Origin: an archaeon
GTDB taxonomy: Archaea; Iainarchaeota; Iainarchaeia; Iainarchaeales; CSSED10-239
Length of the DNA: 24,273 bases
Reading direction: 5' to 3'
Assembly: GCA_035387745.1 (NCBI GenBank)
Contig: DAOOON010000005.1
Span: 14,414-38,686, forward strand
Under the pieces are notes generated by a model. The model saw only the letters and a program-made list of their open reading frames with translations. It did not search any database and had not been told where the DNA came from. Shown in pieces: positions 7,083 through 24,273 of the stretch. Both the position numbers and the translations under genes were made by a program. Positions within the stretch are counted from its first letter, which is position 1; each line of letters opens with the position of its first letter.

Positions 7083-7093
7083 ATATATTCAAA

Positions 7094-7557: not shown

Positions 7558-7640
7558 TTTTTTGCTCCTTTTTAAAATTGTATTTTTTTCTATTTATATA
7601 TAGATATATTATATTTATATATCTTTTGTTAGGATTTCTC

Positions 7641-7976: not shown

Positions 7977-8042
7977 ATAATCACCAATATAAAAAATTAT
8001 AGTCTATTGTTTTAAAATACTTTCTGCGGTATTATTTATTAT

Positions 8043-8786
8043 ATGAAAACACCAATAATGCCTACAATTAATTATAAAAAATTTTCATGGAATGAATTAG
8101 ATAAAATAGATCAAAATACTATAACACAAATTTCAGAAATTGACAATTTATTTTATCGATCCTCTTCAGATTTAGAAGAATATCTACGTAAAATAAAAAT
8201 AAATGCAGATAAAACAATAATTTATTTGTGTTATAGGGGGAAAGAACTGGTGGGTGCAGTTTTTGGTACTTTAAATCGTGTTTCTGAATTTTGCAATAAA
8301 GATTATAAAATTAAAGCAAAACCTAAAGACTATATGTTTTTATTAACCGAGTTTTTTGTTAAGCCTGGATTTCAAAATAATGGCATCGGTACAGCACTAA
8401 TGGCTAGAGTATTTGCAGATCAAAGAGCCAAATATGATTCTAAATTTATATATATGAAAGCATTTCGAAAAACCCAAACTATAAATAAAAAACTAACCGG
8501 AATAACGCCATTTATTGTGCCTATAAAAGAGGTGGCAGAAATTAAAAGAATAGTAAATAATCTTTCAATAATTGAAAAACGTAAAAAAAGAAACATATCA
8601 CATAATAAATCAATGAAAACTGGCGCCTTAAAACGGAAGATATTTCGTAATTTTAAAAATTCAAAATATAAATATGATTTAATAGAGACCTCTAATCCAT
8701 CAATTACTGATGTTAAAGATCATTACATCGTAATAAATAAAAATCCAAAATATAAAAGAAAGCAAATAAGAAGTATTGCAAAATAA
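8043..8786 (+). CDS. GNAT-family N-acetyltransferase-like protein with basic C-terminal extension
   Basis: FFVKPGFQNNGIGTALMARVF fits GNAT motif A (Q/R-x-x-G-x-G/A acetyl-CoA loop). The C-terminal ~90 residues are Lys-rich with no recognised domain. Confidence 0.55.
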   Translation: MKTPIMPTINYKKFSWNELDKIDQNTITQISEIDNLFYRSSSDLEEYLRKIKINADKTIIYLCYRGKELVGAVFGTLNRVSEFCNKDYKIKAKPKDYMFLLTEFFVKPGFQNNGIGTALMARVFADQRAKYDSKFIYMKAFRKTQTINKKLTGITPFIVPIKEVAEIKRIVNNLSIIEKRKKRNISHNKSMKTGALKRKIFRNFKNSKYKYDLIETSNPSITDVKDHYIVINKNPKYKRKQIRSIAK

Positions 8787-8793
8787 TTTTATT

Positions 8794-9351
8794 CTATTTC
8801 TTTTCTTTGCTTGTTTTTCTATATATAAATATTACAAGTAAAAATTCTGCAATAATTACTACTGGTAGCATCTTATTCAATAACTTCGTTGCAGAGATTG
8901 TTGCAACAAATAAAGATACAAGCGATGCTGAAAGTATAGAGTATCTTATAATTTTATCTTTAATTAATATAAAGGCCATTAACAAAGCCAAAAGAAAAGT
9001 AAAAATCATTCTGCCAATATTTATTCTATTATTATATGTTTCTAATATCTTGTTATAATCTCTATAACAATAGCTACATTCCATTTGGCAGTCTTTCTTA
9101 TAAACAATGTTCCCTTCTGACTTATAACAAGAATTAATGTATTCTTGATTATAGGAACAATTAGCATCTATATTTGTAATAACTTCTGGTTTGTAATTAT
9201 AATCCTGTAAATAACAATTATCTTTTGGTCTTTCTAAAAATAATTTATCTATTGTAAAAACAAAACTAATAACTAAAGCAAAAATCAAAGTAAACATTAT
9301 AATATTATATACTACATTTTCTAGTTTTTTTGATTTTACTTTTTTATTCAT
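8794..9351 (-). CDS. Membrane protein with Cys-rich extracytoplasmic segment (hypothetical)
   Basis: N-terminal TM helix, then a segment with 8 Cys (CYLQ..CSY..SCYK..CQMECSYCY), then two to three C-terminal TM helices. Its ATG overlaps the helicase stop (TAATG). Confidence 0.5.
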   Translation of the reverse strand: MNKKVKSKKLENVVYNIIMFTLIFALVISFVFTIDKLFLERPKDNCYLQDYNYKPEVITNIDANCSYNQEYINSCYKSEGNIVYKKDCQMECSYCYRDYNKILETYNNRINIGRMIFTFLLALLMAFILIKDKIIRYSILSASLVSLFVATISATKLLNKMLPVVIIAEFLLVIFIYRKTSKEKK

Positions 9352-10700
9352 TATCTTCTACCTCTATTGGTGTATTTTTTTTGTCTTATTTTTTTCTTAT
9401 GTTTAAAAAAATCCATTCTTTTCTTTTTAATATCTTCTTCTGTTAGTTCTCCAATTACCATCTTTTTTTGGTTTTCTTTTTTTCTATCCTTTCTATCCTT
9501 ACTGAAATGTTCTCTTCTTTCTTGATATCTGTTTATTCTTTCAAGTGCTCTTTCTTCTTCTTTTGTTCTTTTTAGAGTTATAGGAACAATTGACGGCAAG
9601 ACCTTTGCTTCAACTATAAAACCAAATTTCTTACACATTCTTAGAAAGTCTTCTTCTTCTTTTTGAGTAATGATTGATATTGCTCTTCCTTTCTTTCCGG
9701 CTCTTGCTGTTCTTCCAATTCTATGTATATATTGTGTATTGTCTTTTGGCAAGTCGTAATTGTAGATATATTCTAGATTATCAATGTGTATACCTCTTGC
9801 AGAAACATCTGTAGATATTAATAACCCGTCTGCATTTGCGTGATATTTTTCAATGGTTCCTGATCTTTTATTTTGTTCTAGGCCGCCATGTAATTTAAAG
9901 CATTCTACTCTTTGTTCTTTTAGATTATTATAAATAACGTCTACCTCGCTTCTAGTATTACAAAAAACAATAGCTTTTTTACTGTGTTGCTTAACAAGAT
10001 GTAAAAGCAAAGAAAACTTCTGATTTTGTTTGACTAGATAATAGTCTTGTAAAAGATTTTTTGGGTCAACGTAAGTCTGCACAACAATTCTTTGTGCATG
10101 AGAGATATATTTTCTTTCGATATTTGAGACATCGTTTGTTATAGTTGCAGAAAAAAGAAGCGTTTGTCTTTCTTTTGGTAGTTGCTCAATAATTCTTGAG
10201 ATATCTTCTGAAAAACCCATGTCACACATTCTGTCTGCTTCGTCTAATATTAAATATTTAATATTATTAACTTTTAGATTTCTTCTTTCAAACTGGTCAA
10301 TTATTCTTCCGGGCGTTCCTATAACAATGTCTGCATATTTTAATTGTCTTGCCTGATTACCAACAGAAGCGCCGCCAAATATAGCACAGGCTTGAAGTTC
10401 TTTAACTTTTGCTATTTTTTTGGTTTCTTCATAAACTTGATTAGCAAGTTCTCTTGTAGGTACTATAATTAGTAATTGAACTTTTTTTTGTTTTGTAATT
10501 GATGGTAAAACACCTGCAAGAAAAGCAATAGTTTTTCCTGTACCTGTTGCTGATTGAGCAATTATGTTTTTGCCTTCAAGTATTGCAGGAATAACCTTTT
10601 CTTGTATTTCTGTTGGCGTTTTTATGCCAATATTATGTATTGCCTGTAGTATTTGCTTATCTTTGACAAGGCCTTCAAAGTTATTATTTGTATTTGTCAT
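9351..10700 (-). CDS. DEAD-box ATP-dependent RNA helicase
   Basis: Q-motif region (GIKTPTEIQ), motif I AQSATGTGKT, Ia PTRELA, II DEAD, III SAT and VI HRIGRTARAG. Basic C-terminal tail. Confidence 0.92.
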   Translation of the reverse strand: MTNTNNNFEGLVKDKQILQAIHNIGIKTPTEIQEKVIPAILEGKNIIAQSATGTGKTIAFLAGVLPSITKQKKVQLLIIVPTRELANQVYEETKKIAKVKELQACAIFGGASVGNQARQLKYADIVIGTPGRIIDQFERRNLKVNNIKYLILDEADRMCDMGFSEDISRIIEQLPKERQTLLFSATITNDVSNIERKYISHAQRIVVQTYVDPKNLLQDYYLVKQNQKFSLLLHLVKQHSKKAIVFCNTRSEVDVIYNNLKEQRVECFKLHGGLEQNKRSGTIEKYHANADGLLISTDVSARGIHIDNLEYIYNYDLPKDNTQYIHRIGRTARAGKKGRAISIITQKEEEDFLRMCKKFGFIVEAKVLPSIVPITLKRTKEEERALERINRYQERREHFSKDRKDRKKENQKKMVIGELTEEDIKKKRMDFFKHKKKIRQKKYTNRGRR

Positions 10701-11287: not shown

Positions 11288-11373
11288 TTTTATAACCTCC
11301 GTGTTATATGTTATATTAATATTTATAATAAGAAATGTTTAAATACCCTAATAAATAGACTGCTTGATTCAAA

Positions 11374-12039
11374 TTAATTAGTTAATATTGCATTTAATCT
11401 GTCTGTTATTTCTTTTTTATAATCTCTAAATTGCATTATTGCTTTTCCTTCTTTAGATATTTCAATAGTTAAAGCTTCTAGTTCTTTTGGGAAATCGTGT
11501 TTAAATGCCTTTGTATACTTTATACCTGAAAGTCTTTGAAACAATGCTGCAATAACTATGTCGTGTGTTATGTTTTCAAAAATAATTGTTCTGTTTGTCA
11601 TTTTGTTTACTCTGTTTGGAAGTTTAAATCTGTCTTTTATAATTTGATCTGCTATTACTTCTGGTTTAGGGACAATTCTCTTTGGAAAGTTTCCATTTAA
11701 CCAAATTTTAATAACAATTGAATCTTTTACTCCTAATTTTTCAGAAACTCTTTTAAAAAAAGTTAAGAGATTATCTCTTTTTGTGGTTTTTATTCTTTCG
11801 CCAGAGAAATATTTATGTCCTCTTAGTTCTTTATTTATTCTTAATTTATATTCTGTATTTGTTAGTTTCTCTAAGATCTCTGCAGTTTCAATAGTTCTAT
11901 TTTCTGTAGAAGAATAAATTTTTGCAGGTTTAGATTCTCTTGCTAATTTAACAATATCTTCTTTTCCTTTAGGTGTTATGTTTTTGCCATTTTTTGTTTT
12001 TTGAGCATGTCTTCTAAAAGATATAGATACTGGTGGCAT
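11374..12039 (-). CDS. Histidine phosphatase (phosphoglycerate-mutase-like) superfamily protein
   Basis: N-terminal SFRRHAQK (RH catalytic motif) and C-terminal ITHDIVIAAL (second catalytic His region). Assignment rests only on these two short motifs. Confidence 0.5.
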   Translation of the reverse strand: MPPVSISFRRHAQKTKNGKNITPKGKEDIVKLARESKPAKIYSSTENRTIETAEILEKLTNTEYKLRINKELRGHKYFSGERIKTTKRDNLLTFFKRVSEKLGVKDSIVIKIWLNGNFPKRIVPKPEVIADQIIKDRFKLPNRVNKMTNRTIIFENITHDIVIAALFQRLSGIKYTKAFKHDFPKELEALTIEISKEGKAIMQFRDYKKEITDRLNAILTN

Positions 12040-12856: not shown

Positions 12857-13084
12857 TTATAATAAATCTAAGAATTCATCTTTTGAAAGTCTTAAGTCCT
12901 GTTTAATTATTTTATTCAAAAGTCCTTCAGGGACGGGCTTATTAGAATGCATTGGTATAACAACTAATCTGCCATCAGAATGAGAAAATATTTTGTGAGA
13001 TCCTTTTTGCCTTATTTCTTTAAAACCCAACTTTATTATGACTTTAGTTAGCTTTAAAGAAGAAACAATAGGAAGCTCACTCAT
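12857..13084 (-). CDS. hicA: HicA-family mRNA interferase toxin
   Basis: 75 aa. KLGFKEIRQKGSHKIFSHSDGRLVVIPMH is the typical HicA (YcfA-like) dsRBD-fold signature with the catalytic GSH. 4-nt overlap with the upstream hicB. Confidence 0.85.
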   Translation of the reverse strand: MSELPIVSSLKLTKVIIKLGFKEIRQKGSHKIFSHSDGRLVVIPMHSNKPVPEGLLNKIIKQDLRLSKDEFLDLL

Positions 13085-13305
13085 AATGTAACCCTTATCA
13101 TACCTAAAACATTATTATTCAATATTTTTGATTTTTCTTCTTTTTTAACTTCTAAATATAGAGAAATTGCTTCTTTCATATTTGTAATTAATTCTTCTAC
13201 AGTATCTCCAGTAGAATAACATCCTGGCAGATTAGGAACAGAACCATAATATTGTTTAGTTTCTTTATCTTCTTCAATTAAAACATCAAAAGAGTTATTT
13301 AACAT
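13081..13305 (-). CDS. hicB: HicB-family antitoxin (UPF0150-like)
   Basis: 74 aa. YYGSVPNLPGCYSTGDTVEELITNMKEAISLYLE is the classic HicB N-terminal domain signature. AGGTGG SD upstream. Confidence 0.85.
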   Translation of the reverse strand: MLNNSFDVLIEEDKETKQYYGSVPNLPGCYSTGDTVEELITNMKEAISLYLEVKKEEKSKILNNNVLGMIRVTL

Positions 13306-13342: not shown

Positions 13343-13465
13343 TTAAAGCTTTCTTTTTCTAAAAGAAGCATAGAAATAGGAGTCGGATTCCCTCCTCCCA
13401 GATTCGGTTGGGGAGGAACGAGTTATTGGTTCATTGTTAGAAGTTGGTGGATACTTCTCTTTCAT
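13343..13465 (-). CDS. int: Putative Int(N): N-terminal fragment of an integrase gene split by integration
   Basis: Not in the ORF track (40 codons). AAGGAG, a 9-nt spacer, then ATG at 13465. Encodes MKEKYPPTSNNEPITRSSPTESGRRESDSYFYASFRKRKL*. It reads from inside the element through the left att copy into flanking DNA. Its codon phase across the repeat is identical to that of the integrase ORF at the right att copy. Confidence 0.55.
   Translation of the reverse strand: MKEKYPPTSNNEPITRSSPTESGRRESDSYFYASFRKRKL
13387..13407. repeat. Left attachment-site copy (21-bp direct repeat)
   Basis: ATTCCCTCCTCCCAGATTCGG is identical to 24219..24239 in the same orientation. Confidence 0.85.
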
Positions 13466-13509
13466 TCTTACCAACTCCTTTTAGTTTATATTAATATTCT
13501 GATTGAAAG

Positions 13510-13544
13510 CTTTTATAAAAGTGTAGCTTGTGTAGGGAGTGTAT
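13510..13544 (-). promoter_or_regulatory. Candidate int promoter/operator: palindromic TATA-like element plus three 9-bp-spaced GTGTAG repeats
   Basis: CTTTTATAAAAG (13510..13521) is a perfect palindrome about 45-55 nt upstream of the Int(N) ATG on the minus strand. GTGTAG, GTGTAG and GTGTAT start at 13521, 13530 and 13539. Confidence 0.35.
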
Positions 13545-13555
13545 ACAAACTCAAG

Positions 13556-14737
13556 TTATCTGCACACTACATTTATTATTTTTTGAATATCAGCATATTT
13601 TTCATAATCGCAAATTAATTTCCCCTTATTAAATTCAGAAGAATTACTAAACCATAAATTAACCACACCTTTAGAATAACACGCACAAATTAAAGTATAC
13701 AGTTGATTAGATTGATAATATAATTCTGATTTCTTACGATAAAGTCTATCAACATCTTTATCTCCACTGGTAAACTCTAAAGCAATAGGGGGATGAACTG
13801 TTTTTAATTTACACATATCTTCTAATTCTTCATTACTTCTTGATGCTTTATTTATATATATTTTATATTGGTCTATATCTGAAGTAAAATAATCATATAA
13901 TTTGTGTTTGTCTTTAAGTAAAGCAATTATTTCGATTAATTTCCCCCTTATACTTTTTTTAAGTTCTATTTCTTTATTATATTCATATATTTTAGTAGAT
14001 AATTTTGCTCTTTCTTCTTCTAATTTGAGTAGCTTATTTTGAGAAGGTGTGTTTTTGGAGGTGTCATAATAAAATGTATTACTACATTCTCCACGCAATT
14101 TATTTACTTGCTCATCTATTTTGTTGTATTCTTTAATATCTGGGCATTCTTCTAAGTATATAGATAAAGGAGCATAATTTGTGGTATAGAATAAATCTAT
14201 TTTTGTTATTAGTTTTTCTTTTTTTCCTTCTGTAATTGCAGGAAATATACTTTTGGAATCTTGTTCTTTAATATTATCACTTAAAGTATCCAAAACCAAT
14301 TTTATAAAATCAATAGGATATTTCTGATTTAATAAATCAAATATATCATAAAATTCATTTAAATTTAAAGTTCTATGCAAAATTATATTTTGCGCTAAAT
14401 CAAATCTATTTTTTTTAATTAGATTTTTAGCATAAAGTATTTGATTTTCATCAAATGCTCGTTTATAGTAATAAATCATATCATTTCCATTTACCAGAAT
14501 ATCTAAATCAAAAGCTTTCTTGAATTTAGTTGCTTTCAATTTATCAAATGTGTCCTTATCTGTTGCCTTAAACCAACGTTCAATTATATCTCTCGCACGT
14601 TCTTCTGAAATATCATTAGTGCTATTAAACTTTGAGATTATCAAATCAGATAAATCATTTTTCGTACAATAAGTCTTTTCTTTTATTGTTTTTTCAATAA
14701 AAGGGTATATTTCTTCTTTTGCATCCATACATTCCAC
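13556..14737 (-). CDS. Hypothetical protein (element orphan, 393 aa)
   Basis: Long ORF with no recognised motif. The tracked start is GTG inside an AGGTGG SD, so the ATG at 14728 (MDAKEE...) is the more likely start. Confidence 0.6.
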   Translation of the reverse strand: MECMDAKEEIYPFIEKTIKEKTYCTKNDLSDLIISKFNSTNDISEERARDIIERWFKATDKDTFDKLKATKFKKAFDLDILVNGNDMIYYYKRAFDENQILYAKNLIKKNRFDLAQNIILHRTLNLNEFYDIFDLLNQKYPIDFIKLVLDTLSDNIKEQDSKSIFPAITEGKKEKLITKIDLFYTTNYAPLSIYLEECPDIKEYNKIDEQVNKLRGECSNTFYYDTSKNTPSQNKLLKLEEERAKLSTKIYEYNKEIELKKSIRGKLIEIIALLKDKHKLYDYFTSDIDQYKIYINKASRSNEELEDMCKLKTVHPPIALEFTSGDKDVDRLYRKKSELYYQSNQLYTLICACYSKGVVNLWFSNSSEFNKGKLICDYEKYADIQKIINVVCR

Positions 14738-14936
14738 CTTTATTTGCTTCCAAACTACTATAAAAGTCTGGAGTATTTTTATTATTATTAAATAATTACG
14801 ACCCTAAATGCTTATAAATAGTGCGTTTTATTGGAGCGATAAACCACTCCTATGCTGTTTAAATAAGCAGTTAAAAATCGTTTAGTGCAATATTATGTAA
14901 TAATACCAGAAAACAACAAAAAGGAGAATAAGAAAT

Positions 14937-15179
14937 ATGTCAGAAAGAAAATCGATAGAAGGGACGATATTATCAATATCAAATAAAGTCAATCCAAAGG
15001 GGGTGCCATATTCAATATATAAGATTTCTACTCTTGAAGGAAAAGAGTTAGACTTGTTTCAATGGAATAACAATTTTAGATTATTGAATAAGTTATGTAG
15101 ATTTGAAATAGAATCCAATACAAAAGATAACAAAGAGTATAACTCAATAATTGAAATCAAAGAGGTGAAGAAAGAATGA
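14937..15179 (+). CDS. Small hypothetical protein (beta-rich, possibly OB-fold-like)
   Basis: 80 aa with AGGAG SD upstream. First gene of a tightly packed plus-strand operon. The OB-fold idea comes only from an alternating beta-strand pattern. Confidence 0.5.
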   Translation: MSERKSIEGTILSISNKVNPKGVPYSIYKISTLEGKELDLFQWNNNFRLLNKLCRFEIESNTKDNKEYNSIIEIKEVKKE

Positions 15180-15451
15180 AAGTATATGAACTTAAGGATA
15201 CGACCCCGTATCCTAAACTTAAACACGATAATACTGTTTTTGAATTAAAGACACAAAGCGATTTTGAACAGGCAATCTTGGACAATGATGGGGAAATTTT
15301 TATAGAAGATACTAAATGTTATCTTCTAACTAAAAATAATAGGTGTTATGTATTGTTTTACAAAGATAAAGGACCAATAGTAAGAATGTTGAAAGATAGA
15401 ATGGATGGGGGGAACAGCAATGACAACAATAGAAGAAATATTAGCAAGTAA
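15176..15451 (+). CDS. Small hypothetical protein
   Basis: 91 aa with GAGGTG SD. ATGA overlap with the preceding gene, and it overlaps the start of the next gene. Confidence 0.5.
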   Translation: MKVYELKDTTPYPKLKHDNTVFELKTQSDFEQAILDNDGEIFIEDTKCYLLTKNNRCYVLFYKDKGPIVRMLKDRMDGGNSNDNNRRNISK

Positions 15452-16982
15452 TCCTACTCAGTATTCTAATTTATCTATGGGAATCAAAGATGGTTTATTC
15501 TATTATGGTAAAATGGTTGAACATAAAGGACAACTATTAGAGATGATGGTCTTGTCTAATAGACAACTCTTAACTAATTACAGTAGTTTAAACACAAAAA
15601 CAGATAAAAGACCTAATGAAATAAATAATTTTGGTATATTCTATCAAGATTTACCAATAAACATTGCCAATAACGACTGGTCCAACGATAGCATTACCAA
15701 ATTTATTAGTTCTAATAATAAATTAATGAACAAAAAAGAAGTTTACAATAAAGTAAAAGAACAGATAACTAAATATATGGATTTATATGATGAAAGAATA
15801 AGTTCTATGGTTGCTTGTTGGTGTATGGGCACATATATCTATAATCTATTTTCAGGATATGGGTATATACTGCTTACAAGCCAGAAGGATTCAGGAAAAA
15901 GTAAATTACTAAAAATCATTGGACAACTTTCAAGAAATAGTATCTATCTAAGTTCTCCAAGCGAGTCTGTTTTATTTAGAATGATAAATGGAAATAGACC
16001 TACTTTACTTCTTGATGATTTTGAAACATTAAAGAACGAAGAAAGAACACACTATATCTTGCAAATACTTAAGATTGGTATAGATGAAGATGGGGCAATT
16101 CCAAGAAATGAAAAGTATAAGGATACTTTTGTTCCAAAAAACTATAATTGTTTTTGTCCTAAAGCATTAACAAATACTTGCTCTCTTGACCCTATTACCA
16201 TAAGTCGTTGTATAACTATTAATTTACTTCCAACGAATACAGAAAAGGGTAAACTAAAACCAAATAAAAGAGATTTAATCTGGCAAGAAATAAGAGATGA
16301 TTTGCATATATTGATAATGGAGAATTATCAAGAAATAATTGATATATACAATAACGAATCTTTTGGAGACTTTAATTCAAGACAATTAGATACCACTAAA
16401 GGATTGTTATCTATTGCAAAGTTTATTGATGATTCAGTTTATCAAGAAGTTTCTGAATTTCTAAAAGAATCTTTTAAAGATAGAGACCTACAAGACCTCA
16501 GTTCAGATTGGGAATACTTATTATTTAAGCAACTTTATGAAAAAGTGCCAAGTCCAAGATGGTGTTCTACAAAAGAGATGAATGAATGGTTAAAAGAGGT
16601 CGCAATTCCTACAGATTATAATAAAGGATTTAATCAATATATTGGTTTTGTTTTGAGTAAATTATCTTCATTATTCCCAAAACAAAGACATAATGATGGA
16701 ATTATGTATTTGATATCTCCAAAAAGTGTCCAAGAATATATGAGTTTAAAGAAGTATCCTTGCACCTTAGAGGGTTCACAGGATACACAACCTACACTTG
16801 ATTTCAAAGATGAACCATTTAGGGAATTAAAAAATGAAATTATGGATACTTGTGTAAATTGTAATCAAAGAACCTACGTTAAATATACTTCTAAAGTAGT
16901 AAAGGGTAGAAACATTTGTGAAGACTGTGTAAAGAGTGAAGCCAAAAGGAAGGGTAAAGAACTATTAGATAGTATGTATTGA
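15405..16982 (+). CDS. P-loop NTPase, DUF3631-like; putative element replication/helicase-type ATPase with C-terminal zinc ribbon
   Basis: Walker A-like SQKDSGKSK, then SPSESVLFRMINGNRPTLLLDDFE (Walker B-like). The layout recalls DUF3631/SF3-type ATPases of integrative elements. C-terminal CVNC-x20-CEDC. The likely true start is the ATG at 15420 (MTTIEE...), preceded by a GGGGGG SD. Confidence 0.55.
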   Translation: MGGTAMTTIEEILASNPTQYSNLSMGIKDGLFYYGKMVEHKGQLLEMMVLSNRQLLTNYSSLNTKTDKRPNEINNFGIFYQDLPINIANNDWSNDSITKFISSNNKLMNKKEVYNKVKEQITKYMDLYDERISSMVACWCMGTYIYNLFSGYGYILLTSQKDSGKSKLLKIIGQLSRNSIYLSSPSESVLFRMINGNRPTLLLDDFETLKNEERTHYILQILKIGIDEDGAIPRNEKYKDTFVPKNYNCFCPKALTNTCSLDPITISRCITINLLPTNTEKGKLKPNKRDLIWQEIRDDLHILIMENYQEIIDIYNNESFGDFNSRQLDTTKGLLSIAKFIDDSVYQEVSEFLKESFKDRDLQDLSSDWEYLLFKQLYEKVPSPRWCSTKEMNEWLKEVAIPTDYNKGFNQYIGFVLSKLSSLFPKQRHNDGIMYLISPKSVQEYMSLKKYPCTLEGSQDTQPTLDFKDEPFRELKNEIMDTCVNCNQRTYVKYTSKVVKGRNICEDCVKSEAKRKGKELLDSMY

Positions 16983-17011
16983 TTTTTCAAAAACGAACTT
17001 AGGAGATTAAT

Positions 17012-17446
17012 ATGGCAAGTACAAAAGAAGGTAAAGAGATAAGCAAGATGAATGCTGTAAAAAATGGGTTATACTTAAAGTTTACAGACTTTTTTCCCTG
17101 TAATTTATGTATTAACAGAGAGAAATGTTCTGATTTTATTCCTGGAGGTTCTTGCTCTATTGATTCTGAATTGTTCAATCAATTAGTTACTACTGAGATA
17201 GATGAATTAAAAGTATTAGACCAATTGATTAACTACAATATGGTTAGACTATCAAGAGCAACAGAACAATCAAGAAACAGACCAGACCATATCGAATTAA
17301 GTAGGATATCTGCAGAAATAAGAAATCTTATTCAAGCAAGGTTTATAATAAAAAGAAGGATAGAAGGTGAAAAAGAATATGCACGAACTAAAGTATTGCA
17401 ACCAATGTCCGACCAGAGCCAATTGCATTTATTTCAAGAAAAATAA
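17012..17446 (+). CDS. Hypothetical 4-Cys protein (paralogous motif with the next gene)
   Basis: AGGAG SD. Contains CNLCINREKCSDFIPGGSCSID, i.e. CNxCxxRxxCxxFx5CxxD. Confidence 0.55.
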   Translation: MASTKEGKEISKMNAVKNGLYLKFTDFFPCNLCINREKCSDFIPGGSCSIDSELFNQLVTTEIDELKVLDQLINYNMVRLSRATEQSRNRPDHIELSRISAEIRNLIQARFIIKRRIEGEKEYARTKVLQPMSDQSQLHLFQEK

Positions 17447-17669
17447 TTTCTGTGAAAGAGACCAAATGATTAGTGAAGACATTTATGGATTCAAAAAAAC
17501 CAGCATAGACAAATGGTATTCTTTAGTTAATTTAGATAGAACTGAAGATAAAAATAAAGCCAAATTCTATAAGATGGTCAATAAAGAAGTAAAAGAACTT
17601 ATACAAGATATACAAGAGCAGATAGCAGAAGAAAAAGAAAACGAGGATGAAAAAAATGCAAGACTTTAA
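17367..17669 (+). CDS. Hypothetical 4-Cys protein overlapping the previous gene out of frame
   Basis: The tracked start is GTG. The ATG at 17379 sits 8-10 nt after AAGGTGA and is the likelier start. Contains CNQCPTRANCIYFKKNNFCERD, the same CNxCxxRxxCxxFx5CxxD spacing as 17012..17446. Confidence 0.5.
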   Translation: MKKNMHELKYCNQCPTRANCIYFKKNNFCERDQMISEDIYGFKKTSIDKWYSLVNLDRTEDKNKAKFYKMVNKEVKELIQDIQEQIAEEKENEDEKNARL

Positions 17670-18006
17670 AAAATTAAAAATTTGGCAGTTAGGAAGAGAG
17701 TTTACTAAAGATATTTATGATATTACAGAACACTTCCCAAAACACGAGTTTCATTCAATGACCAACCAGCTCAGAAGAGCATCTTACTCAATACCTTCGA
17801 ACATTGCTGAAGGTTGTGGGAAAAGTAGTCAAAAAGAATTTGGAAGATATCTTTCTATTGTTAGTGGGTCGATAAAAGAATGTGAATGCTTTCTTATTCT
17901 TTCAAAAGACTTAGAATATATAACTAACAAAGAATTTAATGAATTAAATGGAAAATTAGAAATAATTGGAAAGATGTGTAATAAACTATTAATAAAAATA
18001 AATTAA
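17647..18006 (+). CDS. Four-helix-bundle protein (23S rRNA intervening-sequence protein / Avd-like family)
   Basis: KIWQLGREFTKDIYDIT..FPKHEFHSMTNQLRRASYSIPSNIAEGCGKSSQKEFGRYLSIVSGSIKECECFL is the characteristic signature of this family. The start may be the ATG at 17656 (GAGGA SD 9 nt upstream). Confidence 0.8.
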   Translation: MKKMQDFKKLKIWQLGREFTKDIYDITEHFPKHEFHSMTNQLRRASYSIPSNIAEGCGKSSQKEFGRYLSIVSGSIKECECFLILSKDLEYITNKEFNELNGKLEIIGKMCNKLLIKIN

Positions 18007-18359
18007 CTATTTACATATTGTTTTATATAAGTATAATCTGATTTTATTTTGCCAAATTCTTTATCTGCATTTTTCCAATCTGGTGGGCAATATCGGTATG
18101 ATTCGCTTATTGTTCTTAAATGTCTATATGCTTTATAGATTTGATTAGCATTTTTACAAATAAATTCTTCTCTTTCTGGATGAGTTCCTGGCTTTTGTAA
18201 ATTAGGAAATTTATTAAGCACAAAAAAATTTACCCAATGGACTGCAGAATAAAACAAAATTATTGATGACCAAGCCTTACAATTAGATTCGGAATCTTTA
18301 GCAATTTGTTCATTGTGTTTTGCAAGGTCTGAAAAATCATATTTATTCAATATTATCAC
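18003..18359 (-). CDS. Small helical protein, HEPN-like (tentative); third gene of a 3-gene cassette
   Basis: 118 aa. The GTG start overlaps the upstream stop (TAGTG). The layout ...ILFYSAVHWVNFFV...KPGTHPEREEF...ISESYRYCPPD resembles classical HEPN domains (TH loop and Y..RYP C-terminal motif). A clean Rx4-6H motif is not present. Confidence 0.4.
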   Translation of the reverse strand: MIILNKYDFSDLAKHNEQIAKDSESNCKAWSSIILFYSAVHWVNFFVLNKFPNLQKPGTHPEREEFICKNANQIYKAYRHLRTISESYRYCPPDWKNADKEFGKIKSDYTYIKQYVNS

Positions 18360-18730
18360 TATTTAATTAGTGCTTTCGCATTTTCTGAAATTTGGTGTAT
18401 AAAATAAGAGTTATCCGAAAAAACATTAAATTCAAATTTTATTTTTTCGTCTTTAAATCTTTCCCTTAATTCTAATTCTAAGTCATAAATCTTATCTCTA
18501 CTATCATAATCGTTTGGGTCAATTAATGTCCAAAATCTAATTACATTTCTATCATTCATAACATACAATTTTTTTACAAATGGTAATGAACTAACTAAAT
18601 GAAAATAAAATTTAATTGCATATACCTTTGTAATAATAGTAATTGGATTATATAATTGTTTATTTATCCCAATATAACACTCATCTATTAATCCCAAAGT
18701 ATTTGTGTTTGCTTGTTTATTAATATACAT
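18359..18730 (-). CDS. Small alpha/beta protein, possibly a degenerate minimal-nucleotidyltransferase-like partner; second gene of the cassette
   Basis: 123 aa. KKLYVMNDRNVIRFWTLIDPNDYDSRDKIYDLELELRERF..IKFEFNVF has the strand-helix-strand pattern of MNT-type antitoxins. It lacks the GS...DxD catalytic signature. Confidence 0.35.
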   Translation of the reverse strand: MYINKQANTNTLGLIDECYIGINKQLYNPITIITKVYAIKFYFHLVSSLPFVKKLYVMNDRNVIRFWTLIDPNDYDSRDKIYDLELELRERFKDEKIKFEFNVFSDNSYFIHQISENAKALIK

Positions 18731-18737
18731 ATAATCC

Positions 18738-19103
18738 CTATTTTGTTTGTGCTTTCAAATCTAATGTTTTTATTTGTTCAGATATTTTTACTAAATTCTC
18801 TGATGCTAATTTAAGTTTATCTGCATAATCTTTTTTCTCAGATAATGACAAATTAAGTAAGTTCTTATCAATAGTAGCCATCTTTAAATTGAAAATTAAA
18901 TCTTTATATATCTCTGAAAGTTCTGGAGAATCGTTTTTTATTAGTGAAATTAATAATTCTTCATCATTTAATACTTCGCTCATTTTCTTAAGCTTTTCAG
19001 AATCATTAGATTCTAATATATAAACTTCATTAATAAAGCTACTAATTATTTTTAATAATTTAGAATATGCAGTAATAAAATCAATAAGTATTTCTTTGTC
19101 CAT
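18738..19103 (-). CDS. Small all-helical hypothetical protein; first gene of the cassette
   Basis: 121 aa with an ATG start, preceded by a TATA-rich 160-bp gap. Its stop lies 7 nt before the next gene's start. Confidence 0.45.
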   Translation of the reverse strand: MDKEILIDFITAYSKLLKIISSFINEVYILESNDSEKLKKMSEVLNDEELLISLIKNDSPELSEIYKDLIFNLKMATIDKNLLNLSLSEKKDYADKLKLASENLVKISEQIKTLDLKAQTK

Positions 19104-19264
19104 ATGTAATCTATATAGTTATTAAATAAGTTAATAAATATAACTATTTTTAAAGGCAATTTACCCCTACTATATATATAGTATATATAGAAAAATATAT
19201 AAATAGAAAATTAACACATTATAATTTACTTTCATAACTCTGAGTTATAATACCCATTATATAA

Positions 19265-21733
19265 TCAATATCTAAATAATTTATTTGCACTTTCAACTAA
19301 ATCAATTTTTCTTCTATCCAATTCCAATATTTCATTTATCTTTTTAGTATTTTCATCAATAATCCTTTGGTCAAATAATGGGATTTCTATGTCTTTTAAA
19401 CGCTCTAAGTTTAAATGAGGAATTGTTGATGCTATTACTGTTCTTCTTAAAGATTGATATAGTCCAATTTCTTTAGTAATTAACACCGAAAAGATATATT
19501 CTGGAGTTATTGTAAGTTTGTATTTTTCTTTAATATAAGATATACAACTTTTCTTTAATCTACATTTTAAAATTCCTGAAGAAATTAAGAAATTAGTATT
19601 TGTAGAAGCAATTGCAAACATCCCTATTTTCCCATCTTTAGTAAACAATATATCTTTTTCCTTTATTTCGAAATTTATTTGATTAAATAAATCTTTAGAA
19701 AGATATAAATCAGCAGTTCTATTAATTGTATAATTTACTAAATCTGAGGTTCTAATAAATGGAATATCTGTTTCTTTTTTAAAGATATATTCAATATAAT
19801 TATCACTGCCAATTTCGATACCTTTTTTAAAATCAAATAGTTCTCCAAGAGTAATTGTTGGAATCCCCTTAGATTTCAAATTTTGAATTGGATATATATA
19901 TCTTGGGAATAAATATTTAGGAATCCATAAATCATAATCTTTTATTTGAGAGAATGTAATATTAAAGTAGCTATCTTTTGATTTATATTTTTTAGGTTCT
20001 TTTTTCCAAAGTTTATATTCCTCTGATACATTCTTTATGTCGTCGATTTCATTTTCTTTGCCTCTTCTATCGTGCCCACAATTTTCTATAACTGACATAA
20101 ATATGGGGTAATCTTTTGGAATTTTATTTAATGGTTGCTTCTCTAATATTAAAATTGTTGTTTTGGTAGAGGTATTTGGCATAAATGTTTCCAATGGAAC
20201 ATCAATTATAGCATTTATTTTTGTGTGTTCACAAATATATTGCCTCACATAACCTAAGCTTTCATTACCGAATATTCCATCAGGTAATACAATCGCCATT
20301 TGTCCTCCATCCTTAAGTAATTGCAAACATCTCTCCACAAAAAGTATTTGAGGTGCTTCTTTATCTTTTAATTTACCGATTTCCCACTTATTATTTAATT
20401 TCCATTTGTGACCTAATGCATATTGTTTTAATTTATCTTCTCCACGAACAGGAATCTTACTTCCAAATGGTGGATTAGTTAAAAGAATACTAAAATCCCC
20501 CAAATGAACTTTTGTTTTTGTGGTGGTATTCCAATGATTTGGATTTTCTAAACTATCTTCACAGAATATTCCACTTTTACCATCTCCAATTATTGCCATA
20601 TATGCTTTTGCAACTTTCGATAAAAAATAGTCCTTATCTATTCCTCTTATTCTATTAAGTGCAACTTCCATTTTTTCTTCTTGAAGATTATTTTTATTCC
20701 AATGATACTTTTCTCCTTCAGCATCTAATTTCTTCCAAACGTGTCTTAAAGATTCTATCAAAAAGCCACCACTTCCACAAGCGGGGTCTATGATTAAATC
20801 TTCATCATTCGGGTCTAAGATATCTACCATCATTTTTACTACATTACGTGGAGTGAAGAATTGACCTTGCCCTCCTTTTAATGCGTGCCCAATAAATGTT
20901 TCAAAAGCATCTGCAATTATATCTCTCTCTGCTTCAATAAGACAATAATTCTGTAACTCTCCTACTACATAAGCAACAGAATTAGAATCTAATGTTATTG
21001 TATCGTTATCATCCAATACTTCTTTATATTTTCTTTTTACCTTATTAAATAAATCTAAAATTCTTTTTTTAACGGTTTCTGTATCTTCATCCACTCCTGC
21101 TCTAAATGTGACAATTTCATTAGGTTCTGTAAATCTTTCATCATAAATTTTACAGAAAATCAAATTAATAAGTTGCTGAGCCAATACTTCATCTCTTGTT
21201 GCTCCAATGGTATTAGCAAATAAATGATTTCTTATTGCTTTAAATGTTGCTTTTAAGTTGTGAGTGGGCTTTAAATCTTTACGTTTAAATCTACCTATAT
21301 CTTCAATTCTTTGTCCATATCGAGGAATATTGGGTATTTCTTCAAATTCAATTTTACCTGATTTTTCAATTTTTCTTAAAAATAATCTTTCGTCTCCATT
21401 AAACCAAACTCCAAGATATGCTTTAGAGAATCTTAAATAATCTTGAAGCTGAGTTTTCCCATCTTTTCTATTTTTTTTCTTACACTCTACAATAATATAA
21501 ATTTCATCTTCTTGTTTTTTACTATTTGGGAAAATTGCAATATCTATGGGATATTCTTTTTTTGTATCTGATGGTCTAATTTTCACTCTAAATTGTGGTC
21601 TGGTTTGGATATTTACTTTGGGATACCCATAATCTTCAACCAATTGTTTAGAAAATGTTTGTACCGCATCTATTTCTTCTGGTGTTGCTTTAACTTTTAT
21701 CCCTGAAATATAATCCTCTATATATTCTGCCAT
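19265..21733 (-). CDS. Fused restriction-modification enzyme: PD-(D/E)xK nuclease-like N-domain + gamma-class N6-adenine DNA methyltransferase + single HsdS-like target-recognition domain (Type IIG/IIB-like)
   Basis: N-terminal PIDIAIF...IYIIVECKKK (D...ExK, HsdR-N-like). FFTPRNVVKMMVDIL, IIDPACGSGGFL (motif I) and LTNPPFG (motif IV). C-terminal ~240 aa with TLGELFDFKKGIEIGS, typical of specificity-subunit TRDs. Confidence 0.8.
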   Translation of the reverse strand: MAEYIEDYISGIKVKATPEEIDAVQTFSKQLVEDYGYPKVNIQTRPQFRVKIRPSDTKKEYPIDIAIFPNSKKQEDEIYIIVECKKKNRKDGKTQLQDYLRFSKAYLGVWFNGDERLFLRKIEKSGKIEFEEIPNIPRYGQRIEDIGRFKRKDLKPTHNLKATFKAIRNHLFANTIGATRDEVLAQQLINLIFCKIYDERFTEPNEIVTFRAGVDEDTETVKKRILDLFNKVKRKYKEVLDDNDTITLDSNSVAYVVGELQNYCLIEAERDIIADAFETFIGHALKGGQGQFFTPRNVVKMMVDILDPNDEDLIIDPACGSGGFLIESLRHVWKKLDAEGEKYHWNKNNLQEEKMEVALNRIRGIDKDYFLSKVAKAYMAIIGDGKSGIFCEDSLENPNHWNTTTKTKVHLGDFSILLTNPPFGSKIPVRGEDKLKQYALGHKWKLNNKWEIGKLKDKEAPQILFVERCLQLLKDGGQMAIVLPDGIFGNESLGYVRQYICEHTKINAIIDVPLETFMPNTSTKTTILILEKQPLNKIPKDYPIFMSVIENCGHDRRGKENEIDDIKNVSEEYKLWKKEPKKYKSKDSYFNITFSQIKDYDLWIPKYLFPRYIYPIQNLKSKGIPTITLGELFDFKKGIEIGSDNYIEYIFKKETDIPFIRTSDLVNYTINRTADLYLSKDLFNQINFEIKEKDILFTKDGKIGMFAIASTNTNFLISSGILKCRLKKSCISYIKEKYKLTITPEYIFSVLITKEIGLYQSLRRTVIASTIPHLNLERLKDIEIPLFDQRIIDENTKKINEILELDRRKIDLVESANKLFRY

Positions 21734-21788
21734 TCATTCATCCCCATATTAAAATTATACTATATTATAGAACAAAAGAGAATAAAAA

Positions 21789-21806
21789 GGTAACCATTTG
21801 GTAACC
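21789..21806. promoter_or_regulatory. Candidate operator: GGTAACC x2 at 11-bp spacing in the divergent RM / wHTH intergenic region
   Basis: GGTAACC at 21789..21795 and 21800..21806. The 20-mer AGGTAACCATTTGGTAACCT is also a near-palindrome (8 of 10 half-site positions match). Confidence 0.4.
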
Positions 21807-21859
21807 TAATTTGAACTTGATTTCTTAAAATAAAACAATCTTATTCTATAGGTATTGCT

Positions 21860-22135
21860 ATGAAAAAAGACATTGCAGAATTAGTATCTTTTATTGTAAG
21901 AGGGTCTAATAGAATAATTATACTTAATTGTTTAGCTTTAGAAGAACTAACGCCTTCTCAAATAAAAAAGAAAACAAACCTATATCTTAGTCATATCTCA
22001 AGAGTTATACAAGAGCTTTTGGATAGAAAACTAATTATTTGTATTAATCCAGATTCTCCGATGGTTAAATTTTATGCTATAACTAAAAAAGGTAAAACTA
22101 TTATAGAATTAGTGAGGAAATATAAAAAAGAGTAG
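21860..22135 (+). CDS. Winged helix-turn-helix transcriptional regulator (ArsR/MarR-like small archaeal-type wHTH)
   Basis: 91 aa. LTPSQIKKKTNLYLSHISRVIQELLDRKLI (HTH) followed by KFYAITKKGK (wing). Divergent from the RM gene. Confidence 0.7.
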   Translation: MKKDIAELVSFIVRGSNRIIILNCLALEELTPSQIKKKTNLYLSHISRVIQELLDRKLIICINPDSPMVKFYAITKKGKTIIELVRKYKKE

Positions 22136-22139
22136 GATA

Positions 22140-23156
22140 TTACTTAGAAGTAGTATGCATTTTTAGTTTTTGTATCTCTAATAAATATTCTATTGTAGAT
22201 TCCACATATGAAAAATATAATTTTAACACATTATAATCTATGTCTTCTTCTTGTTTATGGTCTTTATCCTTTAGTTTCTTGTATATTCTGGTATATACTA
22301 AATATTCAATTGTGCTTTCTATCTCTTGAGAAATTATCATTTTCTTTTGAATCTTCCTCATATTATCTTCAGGTTTATGTAATCCACAAGACTCATCTGT
22401 TGTTTTCTTGGAAAACTCTTCAAAAAAATGTTCTATTACTCCAATTAATTTGTGTATGGTCTTTTCTTTATCCCCCATTTCTAAATATCTATAGCCTTCT
22501 ATTAAAAGTTCAGACACTTTTTCATATCCATATTCTGATAATTTATTAGAAATTGGAACATTAATATAATATTCTAATGATTTTGGTTCGGAAATAACTG
22601 TAGTTGAAATTATAGTTGATAATTCATTTAAAAATTTAATATTCTCAAATAATATTTTAGAATACTCGAAATTAGATATATCTGATTTACGATTTAATTG
22701 AGTAATTTGAAAATAAATTACTGGCATTGATATGACTTCTATTATTATCCTGGATTCTTTACTATCCCACTTAAAAAGTAAATCAATATTATATGGCAAT
22801 TCAGCTCTTATACCTTTTAACCAATTATAATATAGTTTTTGTTCATCAGATATGGTTTTTACTTTTAATAAAGATTTAAGTTTATATTTCAAATCTGGAG
22901 TATATACTCTTTTCATACTATAATGTATAACTGTAGAGAATAACTTGGGATTAGAATGGATTTTGCTATAACTATGTTCTAAAACATCTACCATAGTAAT
23001 ATCATCAGTAAGATAACCCACTTTTTCCATATAATTCTTTAATTCTAATTGAATTCCATTATATAATTCTGCAAATTTTTGGTCAGAAGTATCTTTACAA
23101 GGATATCCAAAGATTCCTTTAACTATAAGGTTATTTACATTTACCATATTTATCAC
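22140..23156 (-). CDS. Hypothetical protein (element orphan, 338 aa)
   Basis: Long ORF with no recognised catalytic motif. Mixed N-terminal domain and helical C-terminal third. The tracked start is GTG, with an alternative ATG at 23147. Confidence 0.6.
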   Translation of the reverse strand: MINMVNVNNLIVKGIFGYPCKDTSDQKFAELYNGIQLELKNYMEKVGYLTDDITMVDVLEHSYSKIHSNPKLFSTVIHYSMKRVYTPDLKYKLKSLLKVKTISDEQKLYYNWLKGIRAELPYNIDLLFKWDSKESRIIIEVISMPVIYFQITQLNRKSDISNFEYSKILFENIKFLNELSTIISTTVISEPKSLEYYINVPISNKLSEYGYEKVSELLIEGYRYLEMGDKEKTIHKLIGVIEHFFEEFSKKTTDESCGLHKPEDNMRKIQKKMIISQEIESTIEYLVYTRIYKKLKDKDHKQEEDIDYNVLKLYFSYVESTIEYLLEIQKLKMHTTSK

Positions 23157-23211
23157 TAAATATATATTAATATCGTAAATTTATTAAATAGATTATTAAA
23201 GACAAACTAAA

Positions 23212-24201
23212 TCATACAATCCCTCCAAGATTTAATATAGCACTATCTAAATCTCTTCCACTTAAGTGAACATATCTACTTGCCATATCACTGGCTTGTG
23301 TCCATCCAAAGAATTGTTTTAATTGTGCTTCTGTTAAATGGTTTGCAAGGTATGTTGCTCTGCTGTGCCTGAAAAGATGAGGATTTGATTTTTTTTCTAT
23401 ATTGCTTTTCTTGAAAGTTTCATTAAGTGTCTTTCTTACTACAGAATAACTTGGTATTTCTTTTGGTCCTCTGCCTTGTTGATTTCTCCTTATCATCTTA
23501 CACCATACATTGCTTTCACTGTCTTCACCAAATGGATGTTCTTTTATCCATTCTTTAAGATAGGGAACTGATTTGATTATTGGAATTCTTCTTTGTCCCG
23601 TTTTTCCATTAACTAAAATAGAGGATATCTTTTCTCCAAAGGTTATGTGCTTAATTTTAAGTGTAAGCATCTCTCCAATTCTTGCTCCTGACTCATACAA
23701 TAAGTAAATAAATGCTTTGTCTCTTGTAAACTTTGCAGTAGCAACTAATTTCAAAACTTCTTCTTCGGTCAATAACTCTTCAGGTAAAATATTACTTTTA
23801 GAATCCTTAACTTTAATCCAAGAAACAATCTTTGGAGCAGTTTCATCATCTCCAAGTAGCCACTTATAGAATCTCTTTAGAATTATCTTATAGTCTGATT
23901 TAGTCCAAAAAGCATAGTCTCTTTGCTCAATAGTAAACATCAAATATTCAATATCTTGCTTTGTGGCTATAGCAAAAGGTATTTGTATTACATTAGACAT
24001 ATCTCTAAGCATATAGATAGACTTAGATAGTCTAATTGACTTAATTCCTTGAGCTTTCATAGATATAACATAGTCAAGTATTGCATTTCTGTTCTCTTCA
24101 ACAACCTCTAAATTGTTTTGTAGAGTAAAAATAGCTCTGCTTAGTCTGTGTTCAGTCCTGTATATGTCGTCGGGACCACTTACATTACAAACTTCTAACA
24201 A
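23212..24201 (-). CDS. int: Tyrosine recombinase/integrase, catalytic (Int(C)) portion; ORF stays open upstream to 24255 through the att repeat
   Basis: ESGARIGEM (Arg I), HLFRHSRATYLA (HxxR) and MASRYVHLS (catalytic Tyr), with a SAM-like core-binding N-domain. The tracked start is a TTG with no SD, and the next in-frame Met is 47 codons in. The frame continues upstream as PVDPQSESGRRECTRKSS. Confidence 0.85.
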   Translation of the reverse strand: MLEVCNVSGPDDIYRTEHRLSRAIFTLQNNLEVVEENRNAILDYVISMKAQGIKSIRLSKSIYMLRDMSNVIQIPFAIATKQDIEYLMFTIEQRDYAFWTKSDYKIILKRFYKWLLGDDETAPKIVSWIKVKDSKSNILPEELLTEEEVLKLVATAKFTRDKAFIYLLYESGARIGEMLTLKIKHITFGEKISSILVNGKTGQRRIPIIKSVPYLKEWIKEHPFGEDSESNVWCKMIRRNQQGRGPKEIPSYSVVRKTLNETFKKSNIEKKSNPHLFRHSRATYLANHLTEAQLKQFFGWTQASDMASRYVHLSGRDLDSAILNLGGIV

Positions 24202-24218
24202 AGAACTCTTTCGAGTGC

Positions 24219-24239
24219 ATTCCCTCCTCCCAGATTCGG
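24219..24239. repeat. Right attachment-site copy (21-bp direct repeat)
   Basis: ATTCCCTCCTCCCAGATTCGG is identical to 13387..13407. It lies 18 nt upstream of the tracked integrase start. Confidence 0.85.
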
Positions 24240-24273
24240 ACTGGGGATCTACCGGTCACTGCCTTTTTCTGTC

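Follow-up and report, generated by a model that had tools for sequence, protein, structure and literature searches.

A plasmid-like element in the tRNA-Tyr(GUA) gene of a DPANN archaeon, with an integrase gene that is very probably split by integration

A 24,273-nucleotide stretch of archaeal DNA (from contig DAOOON010000005.1; the whole stretch, at its full length, is referred to here as the window) harbors at positions 13387–24239 what is very probably an integrative, plasmid-like element of 10,832 bp that resides in the tRNA-Tyr(GUA) gene of a DPANN archaeon and whose own integrase gene is split by the integration. According to the mechanism proposed here, the circular form of the element would carry its attachment site (attP) within the 5' end of int, the integrase gene, in the order promoter, Shine-Dalgarno (SD) sequence, ATG, 19 codons, att (about 7 codons) and 335 codons, and the encoded tyrosine recombinase would insert the element site-specifically at the 3' end of tRNA-Tyr(GUA), a gene with an intron. 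By recombining with the same 21 bp in the tRNA gene, the element would supply a new tRNA 3' end from its own DNA; the same recombination would cut int in two, leaving int(N), with the promoter and a 26-codon leader, at the left attachment site (attL), and int(C), with neither promoter nor ATG, at the right one (attR). An initial annotation of the window, made from the sequence alone, had recognized the element as such and had missed three of its properties, namely that the repeat bounding it belongs to a tRNA-Tyr gene, truncated at the end of the window, of which it forms the 3' end, that the host is a DPANN archaeon, and that the integrase open reading frame (ORF) at the right end is the C-terminal part only, the promoter, the start and 19 codons being located beside the left repeat. 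The features on which this account depends are as follows.

13387..13407, minus strand: attL, the displaced copy, consisting of the last 19 nt of tRNA-Tyr and 2 trailer nt
13408..13465, minus strand: int(N) exon, ATG at 13465-13463 and 19 codons in frame into attL (MKEKYPPTSNNEPITRSSPT-ESGRRE)
13475..13498, minus strand: SD-like AGGAG (13475-13479) and TATA-like TTAATATAAAC (~13485-13498) of int, read from the sequence
23212..24218, minus strand: int(C), 335 codons with all conserved recombinase blocks, frame open to attR, no ATG
24219..24239, minus strand: attR, the copy that serves as the functional 3' end of tRNA-Tyr
24221..24273, minus strand: tRNA-Tyr(GUA) gene, truncated at the end of the window; recognized by ARAGORN with the intron option on longer relatives

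Identity of the repeat with a tRNA-Tyr 3' end

The 21-mer ATTCCCTCCTCCCAGATTCGG occurs at 13387–13407 and 24219–24239, both times on the plus strand and with a spacing of 10,832 bp between the copies. No further match is present in the window, even with 3 mismatches allowed, and the chance expectation obtained from 100 shuffles is 0. The ORF of a tyrosine recombinase (23212–24201, minus strand; PF00589, 3.8e-22) lies 17 nt from the right copy. The central claims of the initial annotation, that is, an integrated element bounded by a perfect 21-bp repeat, a tyrosine recombinase gene abutting the right copy and a circle of 10,832 bp upon excision, agree with these observations. The hexamer TCCCCA that had been noticed outside both copies is real as well and belongs to the T-stem of the tRNA, whose 5' strand it forms (CCCCAG at attR, CCCCAA at attL).

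The repeat is composed of the last 19 nt of tRNA-Tyr and 2 nt of its trailer. At attL, these 19 nt comprise 6 of the 7 T-loop nucleotides, the 3' strand of the T-stem, the 3' strand of the acceptor stem and the discriminator; beyond attL lie the chromosomal trailer CCGACTCC and then hicB, which is the same order as in the empty sites described below. At the right end, the window extends 34 nt past the repeat copy, and the minus strand reads a T-arm (CCCAG TCCGAAT CTGGG), an acceptor strand (AGGAGGG) and the discriminator. The 3' exon runs from 24256 to 24221 and is preceded by the last 17 nt (24273 to 24257) of a 54-nt intron. The full tRNA-Tyr(gta) gene, including the 54-nt intron, is found intact in an occupied allele on a longer contig (L061:381-509). 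Since the gene is cut by the window end and contains a long intron, default tRNA scans were negative, and no RNA gene was reported in the window by ARAGORN at default settings or by Rfam at the gathering threshold. A ctRNA suggested at the right end by an Rfam E-value scan proved to be a chance match only.

Two related contigs, L002 and L005, reveal an archaeal tRNA-Tyr(GUA) in which C1-G72 is the first pair and position 37 is followed by a long intron, and ARAGORN calls the gene when introns are allowed. A C1-G72 first acceptor pair is typical of archaeal tRNA-Tyr, and the intron is likewise an archaeal feature. The length of the intron varies among the related archaea, from 0 (L026) to 30, 54 and 67 nt, and the exons are nearly identical (L005:5780-5908, L002:9920-10059, L047, L026).

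A repeat that equals the 3' part of a tRNA gene, regeneration of the tRNA gene, a tRNA fragment that marks the far end and an integrase gene that adjoins the tRNA are the hallmarks of tRNA targeting by genomic islands in the sense of Islander (PMC4383910), and all of them are found in this element. When three public collections were scanned with the 19-nt att core (IMG/VR, 0 matches; JGI metagenome contigs, 25 loci; GTDB genomes, 13 loci), the core was encountered only at tRNA-Tyr/att junctions of related archaea, apart from a few unrelated chance matches, so that the possibility of a common dispersed repeat, which had been considered at the outset, does not apply. The order DUF2666, PAP2 phosphatase, tRNA-Tyr, integrase is conserved across distant DPANN genomes (L002, L051, L052 and L064, about 7000-10000 in each), and this conserved neighborhood with integrases identifies tRNA-Tyr as a recurrent integration hot spot. 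A radical-SAM gene precedes the DUF2666-PAP2-tRNA-Tyr block in L002, L051 and L064, with a wyosine-synthesis domain listed for L051 and L064.

Empty and occupied alleles

Contigs that cover the integration site were retrieved through the 74-aa HicB-like protein encoded next to attL. Four of these (L005, L008, L009 and L010) are 98.1–99.7% identical to the chromosomal part of the window, and a fifth (L007) is a more distant relative. All five contain an empty site: hicB comes right after tRNA-Tyr, att is present once, and the sequence is precisely the one expected from removal of 13408–24239; this is the empty site for which the initial annotation had proposed a search. The occupied site is represented by L061, a JGI contig of 62,764 bp that matches window positions 3556–24273 at 100% identity and supplies the missing flank, with a DUF6498 gene, the complete tRNA-Tyr, attR and the integrase gene. 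Two further contigs consist of the element plus short stretches shared with the empty allele (141+141 nt in L062, a MEGAHIT k141 contig, and 123+123 nt in L063), the att-att spacing being 10,832 bp in both. Their form suggests that they are assembly-graph bubbles and that both alleles coexist in one sample. Moreover, elements of the same type (replication protein 98% identical) are found in L054 and L055 with other host flanks and with a variant tRNA-Tyr (…GGGAGGGGGGA). The existence of empty and occupied alleles, along with the other host flanks, indicates that the interval is mobile, rather than a chance repeat or a fixed island, and its integration appears to be polymorphic.

The host, a DPANN archaeon of low GC content (about 29%), is probably Diapherotrites-like. 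The 90%-identity cluster of the decarboxylase encoded in the window includes a protein named Candidatus Diapherotrites archaeon, and homologues of the integrase as well as matches to tRNA-Tyr were found in Diapherotrites, Woesearchaeota, 'ainarchaeum' and metagenome-assembled genomes of unclassified archaea. The host is known from metagenomes, one related contig being from activated sludge.

The integrase gene

In the integrated state, the integrase frame is open up to and through attR and then meets a TGA inside the tRNA gene, with no ATG between; the sole in-frame start is TTG 24201, which is the one chosen by gene callers. Joining of the two ends of the element (24218, att, 13408) adds 26 codons, back to ATG 13465, and yields a single 361-aa ORF that passes through att. 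The SD preceding this ATG reads AAAAGGAG, and the TATA-like box TTAATATAAAC is located farther upstream; the segment 13475–13498, which is conserved in all attL copies, would represent the promoter and ribosome-binding site of int, and the 361-aa protein the active integrase. Scans of the public collections with the att core yielded nine attL-type copies, seven of them distinct, and four attR-type junctions. Each of the seven distinct attL variants keeps the TATA-like box, the SD, the ATG and the open frame, the sole length difference being 3 nt, and each of the four attR variants is open back to the TGA in the tRNA, with no ATG before int(C) and with one indel, again of 3 nt.

The same layout recurs in L052, which encodes an integrase 60% identical to that of the window and contains an 8.7-kb element with a 21-bp repeat at the equivalent tRNA position. 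Joining the ends of this element likewise produces an exon in frame, with an SD and an ATG of its own (MSKIKQTIPQTTNYLLTTTNPSK-SGRRDYT…), and this exon is unrelated in sequence to the N-exon of the window. By a rough estimate, the chance of an in-frame ATG before a stop, accompanied by an SD, would be <1% per element in 27%-GC DNA, and that of such a combination arising twice would be ~1e-5 or less. The joined-end ORF, the conserved frame and the recurrence of the layout in L052 lead us to conclude that the window shows the type I, or 'suicidal', arrangement. As expected for type I, attP falls within the integrase ORF, in the window and in L052 alike, as reconstructed from the joined ends, and int(N) (13408–13465) lies beside attL and int(C) (23212–24218) beside attR.

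The detached part is a non-conserved leader of 26 codons; the proteins of the relatives begin 3–5 residues before a 'DIY' motif. All conserved blocks are retained in int(C), and inactivity of the split half is not evident from the sequence. Excision would presumably require either an intact copy in trans or leaky expression of int(C). The integrase of L064 is 50% identical and is encoded by an intact gene at the same Taw1-DUF2666-PAP2-tRNA-Tyr locus, where a TATA-like box and an ATG, 54 nt downstream of att, are separated from it by a stop in frame. Classical relatives such as this one appear to show the origin of the split layout.

The enzyme itself matches PF00589 only, even at E<=10, with no match to PF16795, and it has about 3200 homologues. 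Its catalytic residues, R206, K232, H307xxR310, W332 and Y342 in the numbering of the restored protein, are invariant in the alignment of homologues and occur in the order (R, K, HxxR, H/W, Y) that characterizes the tyrosine recombinase superfamily. The best solved relatives are XerA of Pyrococcus abyssi (4a8e) and of Thermoplasma, XerH and XerD, and a phmmer search of the PDB sequences returned Xer-type entries only. The protein is not a XerA, given that it scores 89.9 bits with the NCBIfam equivalog, compared to a cut-off of 220, and that its gene is on an att-bounded mobile element.

Other genes of the element and its surroundings

The remaining genes of the element, together with a toxin-antitoxin pair next to it, are listed below; ORFan denotes an orphan ORF.

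12857..13305, minus strand: hicB-hicA toxin-antitoxin pair (Pfam HicB_lk_antitox, HicA_toxin), just outside attL
13556..14737, minus strand: 393-aa backbone ORFan, with counterparts of 289-423 aa at the same position in sister elements
14937..15451, plus strand: 80-aa and 91-aa backbone ORFs, upstream of the replication gene; both conserved in L001 and L054-L060
15405..16982, plus strand: replication protein, 525 aa, AAA+/SF3-like replicative helicase with a C-terminal zinc ribbon
17012..18006, plus strand: 144-aa and 100-aa Cys-rich ORFs, followed by a 119-aa four-helix '23S rRNA intervening sequence protein' (bAvd-like)
18003..19103, minus strand: three small ORFs (118, 123 and 121 aa), present in L001, L054 and L055
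19265..21733, minus strand: 822-aa fused restriction-modification (RM) protein, variable cargo, with an HSDR_N_2 nuclease-like N-terminus, an N6-adenine methyltransferase and a specificity domain
21860..22135, plus strand: winged-helix transcription regulator, 91 aa (PF14947, 6.8e-07)
22140..23156, minus strand: 338-aa ORFan with no family matches

The 525-aa replication protein contains a Walker A motif (G164-K165) and a Walker B motif (D204). It has 12 close homologues, and the full HMMER scan gave 7300 representatives; the relatives are often fused at the N-terminus to a Prim-Pol, DnaG-type primase, PriCT_1, DUF3631 or MCM_WH domain. The structure model (pLDDT 88) matches MCM, PriRep1, the NrS-1 helicase, SV40 LTag and the primase-helicases of poxviruses (Mpox E5) and African swine fever virus, and Pfam gives the family a weak DUF5906 match at most. 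The protein is a replicative helicase, and the element presumably replicates as a circle using this helicase of its own; no primase, origin or circular contig was identified for the element. A possible link to a terminase, through a 519-aa protein of L052 labeled 'Terminase_6N (weak)', was dismissed, as that protein is not homologous to the 525-aa protein.

The genes at 17012–18006 adjoin the replication gene in all sister elements, and the bAvd-like protein among their products matches PF05635 (3.6e-36). The 144- and 100-aa ORFs, for which weak sub-threshold matches only were obtained, overlap (17012-17669) and contain CxxC-type motifs, and gene callers shorten the second one to 67 aa. The 393-aa ORFan has only 2 homologue clusters among 5.8 billion protein clusters. 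No meaningful family was found in Pfam, PHROGs, NCBIfam or PADLOC for the ORFs of 393, 338, 144, 123, 121, 118, 100, 91 and 80 aa. The interior had been characterized initially as accessory, and this holds for the replication ATPase, the RM enzyme and the orphans; the supposed toxin-antitoxin-like genes (118, 123 and 121 aa) have no family support, and the true toxin-antitoxin pair, hicBA, is outside the element. To judge from its sequence, the 822-aa RM enzyme looks type IIG or MADS2-like. The slot that it occupies is a swap site, with type III Mod/Res and DUF5655 in L001 (1934-7287), L055 and L060, and with a HinP1I-like endonuclease and a C5-methylase in L058 (8576-10341).

To the left of the element are housekeeping genes, as previously described. 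Those for LysRS, the DEAD-box helicase and ornithine decarboxylase have exact matches at NCBI under two accessions each (HOZ35638-649 and HOZ35971-982), numbered in opposite order, which suggests that two contigs of the region have been deposited. The 664-aa ORF upstream of lysS (window 256-2250) has no Pfam or NCBIfam match.

Sister elements and debris at tRNA-Tyr

Three sister elements (L056, L058 and L060) have the same backbone, with replication proteins 72–88% identical to that of the window. Their left-end exon (L056, ~190-330; L058, 1-150; L060, 1-69) is ribbon-helix-helix-like (…IELNLDKHTYDYLKSKGINISKMVRQLL…) and differs from the exon of the window; it reads into a tRNA-Met(CAT) 3'-half-like fragment in L056 and into another tRNA fragment in L058. 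At the opposite end of L060 there is a partial PF16795 integrase C-terminus (11336-11755), to which the integrase family of the window has no similarity (hhalign probability 0.05%). One and the same plasmid backbone carries, at the same position and in the same split arrangement, either a classical suicidal or a Xer-like integrase; no paper was found that reports classical suicidal integrases in such DPANN-associated plasmids.

In L007/L038, the hicBA pair is flanked by a second att 19-mer (reverse-complement positions 2385 and 2946), and hicBA is 91.6% identical between L007 and the window, compared to 72–79% for the surrounding chromosome. Rather than a part of the element, the pair is probably a remnant of an older capture at the tRNA-Tyr hot spot. 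A strain 99.87% identical to the window (L006:93-2057, JGI Ga0209717_1001922) has, at the same site, a 1.9-kb insert with genes for Fic and UDG. A 29-bp repeat (att plus CCGACTCC) bounds this insert, and at its end there is an orphan int(N) exon without int(C). Contigs L013, L014, L039 and L045 begin like this insert, and L052 also has a Fic gene between its att copies. Tandem int(N)-att remnants are present downstream of tRNA-Tyr in L027 (reverse complement 931, 2499) and L028/L048 (1767-1827, 4491-4551) and resemble the gene-capture debris described for SSV-type integration.

Alternative readings

By its gene content, the element is best read as an integrative plasmid, which was also the preference of the initial annotation over a classical provirus, no virion genes being recognized. 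Among the proteins of the element there is no Pfam or PHROG match to a capsid, portal, terminase or packaging ATPase, so the recognizable genes by which a provirus is defined are missing. Nevertheless, virion proteins of archaea often escape recognition, six of the fourteen ORFs of the element have no family, and it was in a virus, SSV1, that suicidal integrases were discovered (PMC8371274); these points would favor a provirus from an archaeal virus group not yet described, integrated by the same mechanism and with its capsid proteins among the 393-, 338- and 118–123-aa ORFans, a reading that we consider unlikely. IMG/VR contains no copy of the element, and the distribution of conserved and variable genes, with a replication module as the backbone and RM genes as the cargo, does not point to a virus. 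Capsid proteins of spindle-shaped viruses are of a small, hydrophobic or transmembrane kind, and no transmembrane or small hydrophobic protein is predicted in the element.

A second alternative concerns the integrase gene. If the system were of the classical type II (lambda/pNOB8-like), the integrase would be the intact 329-aa protein that starts at TTG 24201, and the ORF at the left end would be coincidental or regulatory. Such a start agrees with the 329/330-aa protein annotated by gene callers, with the location of all family-conserved sequence downstream of the TTG and with the classical arrangement of close relatives, e.g. L064. However, the TTG has neither an SD nor a TATA-like box, whereas the ATG at the left end has both; the frame between att and the TTG is open in all variants, including the one with the +3 indel; and an in-frame ATG with an SD recurs in the unrelated exon of L052. 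A classical gene is, on balance, quite improbable.

Several observations weigh against the favored account, an integrated element whose integrase gene is split by integration, and are to be set against its high overall probability. The TTG (24201 in the window) is kept in all four attR variants, as the classical arrangement would have it, and is a possible alternative start. The N-exon encodes a short, fast-evolving stretch of protein with many non-synonymous changes, and no full-length integrase that includes it is present among the 5.8 billion protein clusters. The circular junction int(N)-att-int(C), which the initial annotation had suggested looking for, is not found on any contig in IMG/VR, the JGI metagenome contigs or the GTDB genomes; the contigs of 10–12 kb with replication-gene homologues (L054-L060, L062, L063) show no overlap between their termini and represent integrated copies, and a search of IMG/VR with the integrase alignment gave two distant, truncated matches only. 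With no attP contig and no full-length protein, the restored ORF is a reconstruction from the two ends and their conservation. The 'SGRRDYT' N-terminus of the protein P0009, once a candidate proof of the restored start, results from a gene call that begins at an intron ATG and continues across the tRNA (L002), and the N-termini of the same kind in P0003 and P0021 are no longer counted as support. Finally, the contrast in k-mer and codon usage across the repeats that might have been anticipated is absent (GC inside vs outside, 27.5 vs 29.5%; GC3, 18.4 vs 19.1%; tetranucleotides uninformative). The same base composition inside and outside would also suit a chance or dispersed repeat in ordinary chromosome or a fixed island that was never mobile, a reading with next to no probability that is already refuted by the empty and occupied alleles at 98–100% flank identity, by the same element in different flanks with a variant tRNA-Tyr (L054, L055) and by the restriction of the 19-mer to tRNA-Tyr/att junctions.

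Implications

As to its kind, the element is nothing unusual, an archaeal plasmid integrated in a tRNA gene, and the basic finding is an ordinary one. What is new is the gene-splitting architecture in a different lineage of tyrosine recombinases and in DPANN archaea, splitting having been described so far only for an unrelated integrase family, mostly from heat-loving archaea. Classical and split relatives at one tRNA-Tyr hot spot, together with the PF16795 sister plasmids, constitute a natural series in which one can ask by what route, and for what reason, an att site came to lie within the gene of its own integrase. Moreover, a group whose mobilome is little known gains a defined mobile element that is polymorphic and has swappable RM cargo.

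A tentative and rather doubtful extension of these observations is that the split layout arose a second time, independently, in the Xer-like clade at the tRNA-Tyr of DPANN archaea, when the promoter and start were moved across attP from L064-like ancestors, and that integration may act as a reversible expression switch. If so, the switch would follow from the detachment of a dispensable leader alone and from the position of int(C) directly downstream of tRNA-Tyr in the same orientation. The circle would then combine a strong promoter with the ATG, and the chromosomal form weak read-through with the TTG start, self-excision still being possible.

Comparison with known systems

According to a 2021 review (PMC8371274), suicidal integrases are exclusive to archaea and probably have a single-event origin; the suicidal SSV, pTN3-like and pT26-2-like families carry PF16795 and use att sites of 40–50 bp, and the system is attributed to hyperthermophilic archaea. 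A few examples are on record for Methanosarcinales (Badel et al. 2020, PMC7253208), and one SSV1-like case for Thaumarchaeota (Krupovic et al.). A full-text search returned no paper on suicidal integrases in DPANN, the single paper with both terms being one on Thermococcales viruses.

The system in the window is like the suicidal SSV-type systems (SSV1, pTN3, pT26-2; She et al. 2001-2004) in that attP is in the int ORF and insertion at a tRNA 3' end splits int, in its archaeal host, and in the orphan int(N)/att tandem remnants at the target (L006, L027, L028, L048). Unlike those systems, it has a Xer-like PF00589 enzyme and an att site of 21 bp, a length shared with the L052 relative; without PF16795 and with att sites that are not about 40–50 bp long, it does not belong to the SSV, pTN3 or pT26-2 families. 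It also differs in that only a non-conserved leader of 26 codons is detached, int(C) keeping every conserved block, and in that the host is a low-GC metagenomic DPANN archaeon and not a hyperthermophile.

With archaeal XerA and the type II pNOB8-like integrases, the window enzyme shares the R..K..HxxR..W..Y signature and a SAM-like N-domain, and the 50%-identical L064 relative integrates at the same tRNA-Tyr with its gene intact. In contrast to XerA and type II integrases, the enzyme is not a chromosomal dif resolvase, and its gene is broken by integration. As a whole, the element resembles archaeal cryptic integrated elements and integrative plasmids (the pT26-2 family, PMC6972569; thaumarchaeal elements, PMC6563490), which are likewise about 10 kb long and tRNA-integrated and contain an integrase, a helicase-type replication protein, a winged helix-turn-helix regulator, defence cargo and many ORFans; it differs in that its backbone ORFans match no Pfam, PHROG, NCBIfam or PADLOC family and that its broad replication helicase family has no more than a weak DUF5906 match in Pfam. 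A parallel is offered by bacterial ICEs such as ICEKp1 (PMC13023037), for which the circular and integrated states are described as differing in the promoter that drives int. There, as described, transcription alone is rewired, whereas the element in the window would, on integration, also lose the start codon and the first codons of its integrase gene.

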